Assembly (NCBI GenBank): GCA_947089095.1
Contig: CAMUJB010000007.1
Location: forward strand, 43,787-107,786
Origin: an uncultured Clostridia bacterium
Lineage (GTDB): Bacteria > Bacillota > Clostridia > Lachnospirales > Lachnospiraceae
Direction: 5' to 3'
Length of the DNA stretch: 64,000 bases
The notes under the pieces are model-generated. The model did no database searches. It was not told the DNA's origin and saw only the letters and a list, made by a program, of their open reading frames with translations. Each line of letters begins with the position of its first letter. Position 1 is the stretch's first letter. The translations under genes and the position numbers were made by a program. This document shows positions 8,710 through 53,506 of this stretch, one piece after another.

Positions 8710-8829
8710 GTCAAATCGGATATTCGCAATCCGCTTCGCTGCTTGCTCATAACCTCATCAAGGAAGTCCCAACCCACCGCTTTCGCCTTGGCGGCTTAGA
8801 AACGGGGGACTTCCTTGATGAGGTTAAAT
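8710..8829 (+). repeat. Fam-B hairpin repeat, standard form
   Basis: ggtcaaatcggatattcgcaatccgcttcgctgcttgctcataacctcatcaaggaagtccc...gggggacttccttgatgaggttaaat. Confidence 0.75.
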
Positions 8830-11411: not shown

Positions 11412-11532
11412 AGTCAAATCGGATATTCGCAATCCGCTTTGCTACTTGCTCATAACCTCATCAAGGAAGTCCCAACCCACCGCTTTCGCCTTGGCGGCTT
11501 AGAAGCGGGGAACTTCCTTGATAAGGTTAAAA
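11412..11532 (+). repeat. Fam-B hairpin repeat, standard form; its terminal ggttaaaag supplies the TAA stop of the DUF445 gene
   Basis: Sequence identity to the other Fam-B copies. CDS 11527..12429 stop codon (rc of tta at 11527-11529) lies inside the element end. Confidence 0.75.
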
Positions 11533-21565: not shown

Positions 21566-21805
21566 AAAGGGGACGCCAGAGAGTATTAAAAGCACGCTGT
21601 TCCGCTCTCCAGAAAACAGAAACTCTAAGACTTCTGAATTTCAATGCATCCAACCGGACGGACCGGCACGCAATTCGCCTCTGCAGGAGGCTAAACACGT
21701 GCCTTTTTCGGGCACAAGTGCCCGAAAATCCTACAGAATCGACAGAAGTCTAAGAGTTTCTAGTTTTCCTCCGAAGTCACAGCGTACTTTTAATACTCTC
21801 TGGCT
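21566..21805 (-). repeat. Fam-A palindromic structured element, copy 2 (core variant B, reverse orientation)
   Basis: rc of core ggattttcgggcacttgtgcccgaaaaaggcacgtgtttagcctcctgcagaggcgaattgcgtgccggtccgtccgg. Termini ggggacgccagag...ctctggcta. Confidence 0.85.
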
Positions 21806-22120
21806 ATATAATTCCACAATTTACGTTTCTTTTCTTTCGCGGTTGTATGGTTCTTCAATTTGTGTTTTTTCTCCTTGGTGGTTGTATGATTCTGCAATTT
21901 ACGTTTCTTCCCCTTTATGGTTATATGACTCTGCAATTTATGTTTCTCCTTAGCGGTTGTATGATTCTGCAATTTACATTTCTTCTCTTTCATGGTTGTA
22001 TAATTCTGCAATTTATGTTTCTTCCCCTTTGTGATTATATGACTCTGCAATTTATATTTCTTCTTGGCGGTTGTATGATTCCGCAATTTACGTTTCTTTT
22101 TCTTTGCAGATGTATAATTT
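21806..22120. repeat. Tandem-repeat array 1 (about 9 units of alternating 39 and 36 bp; unit ggttgtatgattctgcaatttacgtttcttc...)
   Basis: Direct repeats read from the sequence. Starts at the ctctggc terminus of Fam-A copy 2. No interspersed unique spacers. Confidence 0.85.
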
Positions 22121-22237
22121 TATTTTGATAAACTCTATTCCAATAAAAGTATCTATAATAAACTCTAATCAGCTAAATCCAAAAGAAAAATTATACTAAC
22201 AGCAAAGATAACCTCTGCTATTGGCAAAAAATAAAAA

Positions 22238-22510
22238 CATAAATTGCGGGAATACCAGCCAGAGGGAGAAAGTAAAATGGTATCGCAGTGACTTCGGAGG
22301 AAAGTTAGAAGGTCTTAGACTTCTGTCGATTTTGTAGGATTTTCGGGCACTTGTGCCCGAAAAAGGCACGTGTTTAGCCTCCTGCAGAGGCGAATTGCGT
22401 GCCGGTCCGTCCGGTTGGATACACCGAAATTCAGAAGTCTTAGACCTTCTTACTTTCCGTAGAGCGGAACTGCGATACCATTTTACTTTCTCCCTCTGGC
22501 GTCCTCCCCC
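22238..22510 (+). repeat. Fam-A palindromic structured element, copy 3 (core variant B, forward)
   Basis: cataaattgcgggaataccagccagag...core B...ctctggcgtcctccccc. Confidence 0.85.
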
Positions 22511-22532
22511 ACCATCCTCCCCCACCATCTGC

Positions 22533-33162: not shown

Positions 33163-33428
33163 CAAGGGGACGCCAGAGTGCTTTAGGGAGACGTGTTCCG
33201 CTCTCCAGAAAGCAGAAGTTCTAAGACTTCTGAATTTCCGTGCATCCCGCCGGACGGACCGGCACGCAATTCGCCTCTGCAGGAGGCTAAACACGTGCCT
33301 TTTTCGGGCACAAGTGCCCGAAAATCCTACAGAATCGACAGAAGTCTAAGAACTTCTAGCTTTCCTCCGAAGTCACAACGTCTCCCTAAAGCACTCTGGC
33401 TGTATTGTCTCACAATTTACGTTTCCTT
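33163..33428 (-). repeat. Fam-A palindromic structured element, copy 4 (variant B, reverse)
   Basis: ggggacgccagagtg...rc core B...ctctggctgtattgtctcacaatttacgtttc. Confidence 0.85.
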
Positions 33429-33545
33429 TCTCGATCCTCTATGAATACAGGAATCAACTTTTATGTTTTCTTTTCTCGATCCTCTATGGATACAGGAATC
33501 AATTTCTATGTTTTCCTTTTTCGAACCTCCATGGATACAGGAATC
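33429..33545. repeat. Tandem-repeat array 2 (about 2.7 units of 45 bp; tcgatcctctatggatacaggaatcaatttctatgttttcctttt)
   Basis: Direct repeats lying between the head-to-head Fam-A copies 4 and 5. Confidence 0.8.
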
Positions 33546-33555
33546 AAATAAAAAC

Positions 33556-33833
33556 TTATCGGCAGGAAAAAACAGCCAGAGTGGGGAAAAGATTCCTTGC
33601 CACTGTGACTTCGGAGAAAAGTTAGAAAGTCTTATGCTTTTGTCGATCCACTAGGATTTTTTGCCATTCTCGAATGGCAAAAAAAGGGGTGTGTTTAGCC
33701 CGCTGTACGGGCGAATTGCACCCCGATCCGTCCGGCTGGATGTATCTACATTCAAAAGCATTAGACTTTCTTACTTTTTGGAGAGCGGAACAGTGGCAAG
33801 GAATCTTTTCCCCACTCTAGCGTCCCCCCGCCC
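33556..33833 (+). repeat. Fam-A palindromic structured element, copy 5 (variant A, forward)
   Basis: cttatcggcaggaaaaaacagccagag...core A...ctctagcgtccccccgccc. Confidence 0.85.
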
Positions 33834-37845: not shown

Positions 37846-37980
37846 TGCAGACACGCAAAAAGCATATCTGCACCGTTCTTCCGCAAATGATGTCCCTACG
37901 TTGGCATTATCCAAATCAGGTTTTAAGGGTAAAAGCCTCACATGCTTACTCTCAGCCTATTCTAATAAGCTCCCCATATA
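37838..37980 (-). promoter_or_regulatory. TPP (THI-box) riboswitch with terminator-type expression platform, upstream of thiM-E-D-C
   Basis: Minus-strand aptamer GGGGAGC..GGCUGAGAG..ACCCUUAAAACCUGAUUUGGAUAAUGCCAACGUAGGGA matches the THI-element consensus. It is followed by the hairpin ugcagauaugcuuuuugcgugucugca + U7. Confidence 0.85.
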
Positions 37981-38019
37981 TTTCTATTATAACCTCTTTT
38001 TAAAAAAACACAATCCCCT

Positions 38020-38347
38020 TTTTCCAACAAAATCCTTTAACCCCTCCCAACACCATACCTCATTTGAACCTCTATTTTTTACTGAAATTATTCGAACCAA
38101 GTCCAATCAAATCCAACACCATACCTCATTTGAACTCCTATCTTTTACTGAAATTGGTCCAACCAAGTCCAATCAAATCCAACACCATACCTCATTTGAA
38201 CTCCTATCTTTTACTGAAATTGGTCCAACCAAGTCCAATCAAATCCAACACCATACCTCATTTGAACTCCTATCTTTTACTGAAATTGGTCCAACCAAGT
38301 CCAATCAAATCCAACATCGTACCTCATTTAAGCCTCTATCTTTTACT
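38020..38347. repeat. Tandem-repeat array 3 (about 4.7 units of 66 bp; caacaccatacctcatttgaactcctatcttttactgaaattggtccaaccaagtccaatcaaatc)
   Basis: Direct repeats abutting the 5' terminus of Fam-A copy 6. Confidence 0.85.
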
Positions 38348-38630
38348 CTATCGGCAGGATAAATCAGCCAGAACAAAGAAGCAATTTCTTGCTGACGTGA
38401 CTTCGGAGAAAAGTTAGAAAGTCTTACGCTTTTGTCGATCCACTAGGATTTTTTGCCATTCCCGAATGGCAAAAAAAGGGGTGTGTTTAGCCCGCTGCAC
38501 GGGCGAATTGCACCCCGGTCCGTCCGGCTGGATGCATCAAAATTCAAAAGCGTTAGACTTTCTTACTTTTCGGAGAGCGGAACGTCAGCAAGAAATTGCT
38601 TCTTTGTTCTAGCGTCCCCCACCCCCCATC
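38348..38630 (+). repeat. Fam-A palindromic structured element, copy 6 (variant A, forward)
   Basis: ctatcggcaggataaatcagccagaac...core A...ttctagcgtcccccacccccc. Confidence 0.85.
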
Positions 38631-48897: not shown

Positions 48898-49170
48898 AGT
48901 GGGGGGAGGACGCCAGAGTATGGCATTGCAGTACTGTTTCGCTCTACAGAAAGTAAGAAGCTCTAAGACTTCTGAATTTAGATGTATCCAACCGGACGGA
49001 CCGGGGTGCAATTCGCCCGTGCTGCGGGCTAAACACACCCCTTTTTTTGCCATTCAAGAATGGCAAAAAATCCTAATGAATCGACAGAAGTCTAAAAGCT
49101 TCTAACTTTCCTCCGAAGTCACAGTACTGCAATGCCATACTCTGGCTGTCTTTTTCCACAATATAGGTAT
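48898..49170 (-). repeat. Fam-A palindromic structured element, copy 8 (variant A, reverse)
   Basis: ggggggaggacgccagag...rc core A (P1 gccattcttgaatggc)...ctctggctgtctttttccacaatataggtattc. Confidence 0.85.
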
Positions 49171-53130: not shown

Positions 53131-53405
53131 ATCTATCGCCAGAAAGAACCAGCTGGAGTTTGGAAGCCCTTTCTCTATGCAGTGACTTCGGAGAAAAGTT
53201 AGAAAGTCTTATGCCTCTGTCGATCTCCTAGGATTTTTGCCATCTTCTGATGGCAAAAAAGGGGTGTGTTTAGCCCGCTGCACGGGCGAATTGCACCCCG
53301 GTCCGTCCGGTTGGATATATTTTCATTCAGAGGCATTAGACTTTCTTACTTTTCGGAGAGCGGAACAGCATAGAGAAAGGGCTTCCAAACTCCAGCGTCC
53401 TCTAC
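53131..53405 (+). repeat. Fam-A palindromic structured element, copy 9 (variant A with P1 gccatc-ttct-gatggc)
   Basis: aatctatcgccagaaagaaccagctggag...core A...actccagcgtcctctacacc. Confidence 0.85.
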
Positions 53406-53506
53406 ACCATCCCCCCAGCTTTTCCATCCTAATATCCACACACCATCCCCCCCAGCTTTCCCATCTCAGTATCCACACCATTCCCCTCAACCTTCACTTT
53501 TCTCTA

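Follow-up and report, generated by a model that had tools for sequence, protein, structure and literature searches.

Tandem arrays upstream of TwoAYGGAY-like RNA elements in a Lachnospiraceae genome are probably non-coding minisatellites

Introduction

A stretch of 64,000 nucleotides from an uncultured Clostridia bacterium of the family Lachnospiraceae (contig CAMUJB010000007.1, positions 43,787 to 107,786; hereafter the window) carries several copies of an interspersed element, Fam-A, some of which are flanked by tandem repeats. A preliminary description of the sequence placed these arrays at one specific end of the element and stated that all their periods are multiples of three, so that long open reading frames (ORFs) run through them. 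Replication slippage at a fixed element end, hypervariable peptide-coding appendages and protein-binding iterons had been put forward as explanations. Here we ask what kind of sequence the arrays are and why they gather at this element. To our knowledge, the TwoAYGGAY RNAs, to which Fam-A is related, have had no known function since 2010.

Results

Fam-A resembles TwoAYGGAY RNA

Nine full copies of Fam-A were located in the window by blastn and an nhmmer profile. They are listed here together with one leader sequence; the classes are explained below.

2095, + strand: Fam-A copy 1 (blastn, nhmmer)
21572..21805, − strand: Fam-A copy 2, class A (nhmmer, 225.9 bits), with its 5′ end facing array 1
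21806..21829, − strand: class A 5′ leader GAAACGTAAATTGTGGAATTATAT, directly upstream of copy 2
22256..22503, + strand: Fam-A copy 3, the divergent partner of copy 2 (RF01731, nhmmer)
33169..33402, − strand: Fam-A copy 4, class A, left arm of a divergent doublet (nhmmer; blastn, 88% to copy 2)
33573..33824, + strand: Fam-A copy 5, class B, right arm of the doublet (nhmmer, 262.5 bits)
38365..38616, + strand: Fam-A copy 6, a class B-like singleton with its 5′ end facing array 3 (nhmmer, 258.4 bits)
43003, + strand: Fam-A copy 7 (blastn, nhmmer)
48909–49148, − strand: Fam-A copy 8 (blastn, nhmmer)
53150–53399, + strand: Fam-A copy 9 (blastn, nhmmer)

Fam-A is a Lachnospiraceae relative of the TwoAYGGAY RNA (Rfam RF01731). 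The gathering score of that family was reached by two of the nine copies. Copy 8 matched at 48942–49117 on the − strand with 70.5 bits in an Rfam scan of the window, and copy 3 matched at 22293–22465 on the + strand with 75.1 bits, against a gathering score of 43, when a small stretch was searched. Whole-window Rfam scans missed most copies, and copy 3 was found only with the small search space. The other seven, which are 75–88% identical to copies 3 and 8, were not reported by cmscan; copies 2, 4 and 5 went unreported even in the small search space. Copies 2 and 3 share 87.8% identity over 221 nt. The copies thus pass or resemble the covariance model although the motif that names the family is missing: none of the nine carries AYGGAY in its two hairpin loops, which read TT/CTTG and CTGCA/GCAGCAC.

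The first hairpin is a near-perfect palindrome with a loop of 2–4 nt. In the Rfam sense orientation, stem mismatches comprise 419 G·U and 171 A·C pairs, an excess which points to selection at the RNA level on that strand, though the common descent of the copies is a caveat. The notion that the outer stem is hypervariable in every copy had to be softened, as the stems follow class-specific consensus sequences whose differences are compensated. The gtgacttcgg arm of the element forms the 5′ side of the RNA in the orientation of the Rfam model. All three arrays first described adjoin that side, as had been claimed, and so lie upstream of the RNA.

Elements fall into two classes and pair divergently

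A wider sample was drawn from a core-pattern scan of species-representative genomes, with matches from the MAG uncultured Lachnospiraceae MGBC128194, which is 98.5–99% identical to the window. Together with the window and nine metagenome loci, this gave at least 128 full elements (window, L001–L130). In this genome the element is present more than 100 times. The core-pattern scan of metagenomes returned nine loci only, none of them with further array alleles of the window loci. Lachnospiraceae bacterium 28-4 (76% identical) was compared for empty sites and synteny, and its gene order was not conserved.

Among the matches listed, all 25 pairs of elements lying within 2.5 kb of each other are divergent, with spacers of 132–1122 bp. 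As the 5′ ends of such close elements face each other, the spacer between them is a shared upstream region. The elements form two classes, A and B, each with its own 5′ leader, outer-stem consensus and 3′ tail, and doublets mostly combine an A arm and a B arm around a common spacer (both among the matches listed). Class A has the 5′ flank GAAATAAAGCAGAGG..GAAACGTAAATTGTGGnACAATA/CAGCCAGAGTGCAT and the 3′ tail GCGTCCTCTTTGGG; class B has the 5′ flank CCTCTATGGATnnATGAATCAAC-N8-TAYCGGCAGGAAAARA/CAGCYAGAG and a C-rich 3′ tail.

The class A leader explains a junction, ctctggctRtNt..CACAATTTACGTTTC, whose conservation had been noted at copies 2 and 4. It is indeed conserved: it corresponds to this leader and is present at copies 1, 2 and 4 of the window and at about 30 or more copies in the same-species MAG. 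The sequence CAGCCAGAG follows the leader directly. At copy 2 the leader contains a TRTGn and a NANNAT stretch, and class A leaders appear, by sequence, to resemble an extended −10 promoter (TRTGn plus NANAAT, with a perfect TGTGGTATAAT at locus L075). Scans for two-hexamer promoters and for terminators around arrays 1 and 2 gave nothing above shuffled sequences.

A second interspersed repeat, GGGACTTCCTTGATGAGGTTAAA, has seven matches in the window where none is expected, at 1891–1913, 8748–8828, 11451–11531, 40337–40359 and 63893–63915. Two of these sites are inverted pairs about 35 bp apart, and one match lies just upstream of copy 1. The repeat also occurs inside some doublet spacers of the sister MAG (L024, L035).

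Arrays adjoin the elements and consist of abutting units

TRF recovered all three arrays of the preliminary description, together with a fourth that it had not listed:

21817..22122, no strand: array 1 (TRF 21817–22119; period 39, 7.9 copies)
22123..22254, no strand: unique AT-rich remainder of the spacer, 132 bp, between array 1 and copy 3
33422..33547, no strand: array 2 (TRF, 45 bp × 2.8), filling the 170-bp spacer of copies 4 and 5
38047..38347, no strand: array 3 (TRF, 66 bp × 4.6)
53404..53478, no strand: fourth Fam-A-attached array (TRF score 115; 37 bp × 2.1, C-rich)

Cut manually at a CAATTT anchor, array 1 consists of eight units of 39, 39, 39, 36, 39, 39, 36 and 39 nt, arranged head to tail as CAATTTAYRTTTCTTC...GGTTGTATGATTCTG; TRF also reports higher-order periods of 75 and 114 bp. 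When the array is read on the − strand, every unit is a degenerate version of the class A leader of copy 2 (GAAACGTAAATTG...). In array 2, each unit contains the class B leader box CCTCTATGGATACAGGAATCAA. The alignment of array 3 shows three identical central units and diverged edge units. This array lies between copy 6 and the promoter region of a thi operon on the − strand that is headed by a TPP riboswitch. The fourth array begins 4 nt past the 3′ end of copy 9. Identical repeats parted by unique spacers of similar length, the hallmark of CRISPR, were absent from the arrays; the units abut, in agreement with the earlier exclusion of CRISPR.

Several features of the surroundings were recorded alongside. 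The GC skew of the + strand is strongly negative across the whole window (−0.16 to −0.47), its long ORFs lie nearly all on the − strand, and the array sequences keep the skew of the window regardless of the orientation of the adjacent element. The TPP riboswitch (37876–37986, − strand, 67.7 bits) precedes a run of thiM, TMP-TENI, Phos_pyr_kin and thiC on the − strand. A promoter-like sequence, TTGTGT-N17-TATAAT, was read there by eye, with array 3 directly upstream of it. Many Logan contigs of the window species begin about 62 nt upstream of thiM.

Arrays favour the 5′ side of the element

Only four arrays in the window reach a TRF score of 100, and all four touch a Fam-A copy, an association that exceeds chance. 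In 121 sequences, among the matches listed, the density of strong arrays per kb of non-coding DNA is 0.65 in the 300 bp upstream of an element; downstream it falls to 0.30, and everywhere else to 0.07. The 700-bp flanks hold 54 TRF array rows upstream and 25 downstream. An array within 300 bp was found upstream of 26/50 doublet arms and downstream of 6/47 (P = 4e-5); for singletons the counts were 14/54 and 7/72 (P = 0.03). These three comparisons, too, are among the matches listed, as is the count of strong arrays that end within 25 nt of the 5′ boundary of the element (11 of 20).

Part of this bias is trivial, because the 3′ ends abut genes more closely: long open frames cover 74% of the proximal 300 bp on the 3′ side and 43% on the 5′ side (among the matches listed). 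The densities per non-coding kb nevertheless argue for a strong association with the element and for a 5′ preference that is real but partial. The preference is intrinsic to the element rather than tied to the direction of replication: judged by GC skew, a single replichore carries both array 1, which adjoins copy 2 on the right, and array 3, which adjoins copy 6 on the left. The claim of one specific end thus holds as a tendency towards the 5′ side and fails as a rule, since the window itself has repeats on the 3′ side, namely the array at 53404–53478 and a 13-bp × 2.2 repeat after copy 3 (22502–22529).

Short C-rich tandem repeats directly follow the 3′ end of some elements. At L116 (30 bp × 3) and L028 (42 bp × 2.2), the 3′-side units take in the 3′ terminus of the element itself, CTCTRGCGTCC. 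About 250 nt downstream of the element at L040/L123 lies a Gly/Pro-rich repeat of 63 bp that looks coding. The MAG and a metagenome contig differ there by one unit, and the repeat is apparently a separate VNTR unrelated to Fam-A.

Array copy number differs between same-species assemblies

Strain alleles were taken from long contigs of independent same-species assemblies, found via flanking housekeeping proteins. All three listed arrays differ by whole units between these assemblies while their flanks stay the same, which is the behaviour of a VNTR or minisatellite and bears out the suggestion of replication slippage. The spacer of copies 2 and 3 measures 405 bp with 7 units in L157, 449 bp with 8 units in the window, L160 and L161, and 599 bp with 12 units in L156 and L159; in L158 it has at least 12 units and an N gap. 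Its unique tail of 132 bp is constant in length in all strains. The extra units of array 1 are interior duplications of 75-bp blocks of two units (39 + 36), and in L157 the first unit is 34 nt long. Identical alleles of array 1 were recovered from independent assemblies.

The spacer of copies 4 and 5 is 170 bp in the window and seven assemblies and 125 bp in L139 (eight assemblies), where array 2 has 1.8 instead of 2.8 units, that is, one 45-bp unit fewer. For array 3 the window strain has 4.6 units, and L146 and the MAG have 2.6; the public assemblies are short-read, and this last difference involves identical units that an assembler could collapse.

Compared with L160, array 1 and the adjacent unique spacer each differ by about 2%, all array differences being transitions. 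The array and its unique neighbour are thus equally diverged, which argues that the array is under no extra constraint. The window is 100% identical to NODE_149 of ENA ERZ13657768 over 5.8 kb. An exact look-up of the FAD oxidoreductase flanking copy 2 found no record; the contig of a 99% relative of this protein breaks inside copy 2.

Periods divisible by three are a coincidence, and the arrays do not look coding

All periods had been described as multiples of three, and this does not hold. In the window the array at copy 9 has a 37-bp period, and one unit of array 1 in L157 measures 34 nt. As an independent set we took 17 strong 5′-side arrays with the window's own excluded (among the matches listed). 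Their periods are 66, 29, 64, 40, 35, 63, 63, 31, 20, 51, 45, 28, 27, 37, 51, 48 and 72/74. Eight or nine are multiples of three (binomial P = 0.17 or 0.075), and the remaining 8–9 (64, 40, 35, 31, 29, 28, 37, 20) include long, clean counter-examples (35 bp × 8.3, 31 bp × 9.5, 64 bp × 5.2 and 20 bp × 7.1). When the window arrays are added, the proportion rises to 11–12 of 20 (P = 0.04–0.01, among the matches listed), and a weak but real trend may still exist. Array periods at other genomic copies of the element are thus not significantly enriched for multiples of three, whereas the two element ends are unequal, with the 5′ end favoured. The multiple-of-three periods of the three listed arrays are a coincidence and no sign of hidden peptides.

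The same holds for the ORFs. That the arrays encode small repetitive peptides is suggested by the divisible periods of the three listed arrays, by ORFs of 93–153 codons through arrays 1 and 3, and by the fact that gene callers have called ORFs there in public assemblies. However, variable columns of the array 1 units are spread evenly over the codon phases (8/7/6), with 36 transitions and 5 transversions among the substitutions. Every array has two or three of its six frames open simultaneously, which a period divisible by three brings about automatically. The ORFs of array 1 lie almost wholly within the repeats: one begins with TTG and ends inside the element, the other begins with an ATG inside the array, and no ATG start outside the repeats was found for either. 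Array ORFs had no significant Pfam match. The 34-nt first unit in L157 would break any reading frame, and about half of the sister arrays (among the matches listed) have periods not divisible by three. By period, third-position bias, start codon and Pfam homologues, the arrays do not behave as coding tandem repeats, and we reject both the peptide-coding candidate and the hypervariable appendages of the preliminary description.

Public gene calls of 73–167 aa lie inside doublets or arrays at L136 (1850–2353), L156 (6737–7108) and L160/L161 (6724–6958). They are probably spurious ORFs made by the repeats.

Units often derive from the leader and share no general motif

The leader box recurs in register through the array at six loci (among the matches listed), as an A box at window copy 2, L003, L075 and L113 and as a B box at window copy 5 and L029. 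Upstream of copy 2, A-box matches lie at −291, −216, −177, −102 and −24; upstream of copy 5, B-box matches lie at −137, −92 and −47. At copy 2 and L003 the units contain the leader together with the initial 5–15 nt of the stem. Other arrays have no leader box (L063, L067, L041, L023 and window copy 6). The statement that unit sequences differ between arrays is therefore accurate in that units are locus-specific, and needs amending in that several of them copy the same conserved leader boxes.

No k-mer common to 18 arrays (among the matches listed) was found beyond shuffled sequences, the most widespread 8-mer occurring in 3/18, and strain substitutions fall inside the candidate motifs. A motif common to every unit and across arrays, as iterons would have, is not apparent in these sequences, and protein-binding iterons are not supported. 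ViennaRNA predicted no stable RNA fold for the arrays on either strand, with z-scores from −0.2 to +0.9 (array 1, +0.92 and +0.38; array 2, +0.40 and −0.19). An AYGGAY-presenting hairpin in each 45-bp unit, with a 6-bp stem drawn by eye, was dropped on the same grounds, ViennaRNA finding no stable fold. The upstream 5-mers of the Pseudomonas type were not enriched: per 200 nt, the upstream flank had 0.79, the downstream flank 0.75 and the interval 500–700 nt upstream 1.33.

Discussion

Our analysis indicates that the arrays are probably VNTRs, non-coding minisatellites in the DNA upstream of structured-RNA elements that resemble TwoAYGGAY. An array arises when a piece of the upstream region is duplicated head to tail; in about half of the cases, the duplicated piece takes in the leader box along with a few nucleotides from the start of the element stem. 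An established array gains or loses whole units, singly or as blocks, at interior positions between strains, and its substitutions, mostly transitions, accumulate at about the rate of neighbouring non-coding DNA. The ongoing change in copy number is probably due to ordinary slipped-strand mispairing or unequal recombination. We infer that the concentration of arrays at the elements stems from hairpin-prone local DNA: the element is an imperfect palindrome of about 250 nt, a doublet would act as a large inverted repeat with the spacer as its loop, and such palindromic DNA may stall replication and favour template slippage. Simple fork stalling leaves the 5′ preference unexplained. Any effect on the expression of the flanking RNAs, through extra leader- or promoter-like modules or altered spacing, would be a by-product, possibly exploited.

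Four other explanations were weighed, and we judge them in the order in which they follow, from more to less likely. Arrays under selection for regulation, each unit being a promoter or operator module whose copy number tunes or phase-varies transcription of the flanking RNAs as in a contingency locus, are unlikely. The conserved leader box in register at six loci speaks for them, as do the promoter-like look of the class A leader, the placement of the arrays in just the upstream stretch that divergent RNA genes have in common, and the polymorphic copy number. Yet the internal units of array 1 lack the TG and CAGCC features of the proximal leader, the boxless arrays are many and no motif is common to all, strains carry substitutions inside the box (for example ACAGGAAT to ACATAAAT), and the promoter scan did not rise above chance. 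It is rather improbable that the arrays are footprints of element mobility, left when the 5′ end is repeatedly inserted, excised or abortively copied and the leader and the first element bases are thereby duplicated. The make-up of the units at window copy 2 and L003 would fit, as would the duplicated 3′ ends at L116 and L028 and the high copy number with its doublet architecture, for which mobility has also been suggested in Pseudomonadota (10.64898/2026.09.22.753630); against this, neither a transposase nor a target-site duplication nor an empty site was found, all examined elements occupy the same loci in every strain, and the changes in copy number seen today fall within the arrays rather than at the boundary of the element.

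We consider it very unlikely that the arrays are transcribed 5′ extensions of the RNA carrying multiple protein-binding sites (GGA or AYGGAY, bound by a CsrA-like protein). Extra AYGGAY hairpins have been proposed to bind protein in Pseudomonadota. The element loops lack AYGGAY, so that such motifs would need to lie elsewhere, and the 45-bp unit does contain ATGGAT, a match to AYGGAY, and CAGGAAT. However, no array is predicted to fold stably on either strand, AYGGAY is missing from most arrays (among the matches listed), the CAGG of the second unit of the 45-bp array is mutated in five assemblies, and GGA in array 3 occurs only on the strand opposite to copy 6. Encoded peptides, given the results on codon phase, frames, starts and family matches above, are scarcely credible.

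The arrays can be set beside several known systems. Bacterial intergenic VNTRs or minisatellites, such as the MIRU of mycobacteria, have units of 20–100 bp, whole-unit polymorphism, a homogenised centre and degenerate edges. The Fam-A arrays share the unit size, the whole-unit polymorphism and the homogenised centre with degenerate edges, and differ in being tied to a specific element family, mostly at one end. What we describe is ordinary VNTR behaviour at an unusual, still enigmatic element. Like REPINs and BIMEs, Fam-A has palindromic units in inverted pairs, is intergenic, occurs in many copies and has associated tandem arrays; unlike them, it has no identified RAYT-type transposase, its units are much longer, and its G·U bias points to a role at the RNA level.

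The pneumococcal BOX element has the structure boxA-(boxB)n-boxC, in which the outer modules are inverted and fold together (PMC3049150, PMC1315331). Its central array has a 45-bp unit whose number varies by strain and serves as a VNTR marker, longer arrays vary more, and slippage or unequal crossover has been invoked (PMC3049150, PMC1315331). A Fam-A doublet is likewise an interspersed composite with inverted end modules and a variable tandem centre. However, boxB is one conserved module at all loci, whereas the length and sequence of the Fam-A unit are specific to each locus, and the outer modules of Fam-A are structured-RNA genes of about 250 nt rather than 50-nt boxes. End modules and a tandem centre are therefore present, but a BOX-type common repeated unit is not.

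The closest comparison is with the TwoAYGGAY loci of Pseudomonadota, which have a high and variable copy number, form divergent doublets in 68% of cases, and carry repeats upstream of the 5′ end in the form of 5–6-nt GMTBT(T) motifs, while their long arrays are REP arrays of 100–200 nt on the 3′ side (10.64898/2026.09.22.753630). Fam-A is alike in its RF01731 match, its high and variable copy number, its 5′-upstream repeats and its excess of divergent doublets (25/25 here, among the matches listed). It differs in having 5′ arrays of 20–66-nt, locus-specific units, in its loops without AYGGAY, and in that GMTBT(T) repeats are not enriched upstream of it. For copies in Bacillota, the main text of the preprint gives an elongated basal stem only (10.64898/2026.09.22.753630), and Fam-A has such a stem.

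These results extend to Bacillota an association of repeats and doublets that has just been reported for Pseudomonadota, where the repeats and divergent doublets were taken as a hint of mobile-element-like behaviour (10.64898/2026.09.22.753630). As the two hallmarks occur here without AYGGAY in the loops, the architecture of the locus seems more fundamental to the family than the motif in its loops. In practical terms, the arrays are polymorphic markers within a mouse-gut Lachnospiraceae species, and short-read assemblies break or collapse at them and acquire spurious ORF calls from them. A bolder reading, which we hold to be unlikely overall, is that the divergent A + B doublet and its expandable leader array form one genetic unit that characterises this RNA family, and no other, in different phyla. 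In that case the array would be either a contingency-type switch, in which the number of promoter or operator modules sets the output or balance of the two RNAs, or the footprint of a copying mechanism at the 5′ end of the RNA gene. If true, either version would tie the copy-number explosions of TwoAYGGAY RNAs to a concrete process at the level of DNA.
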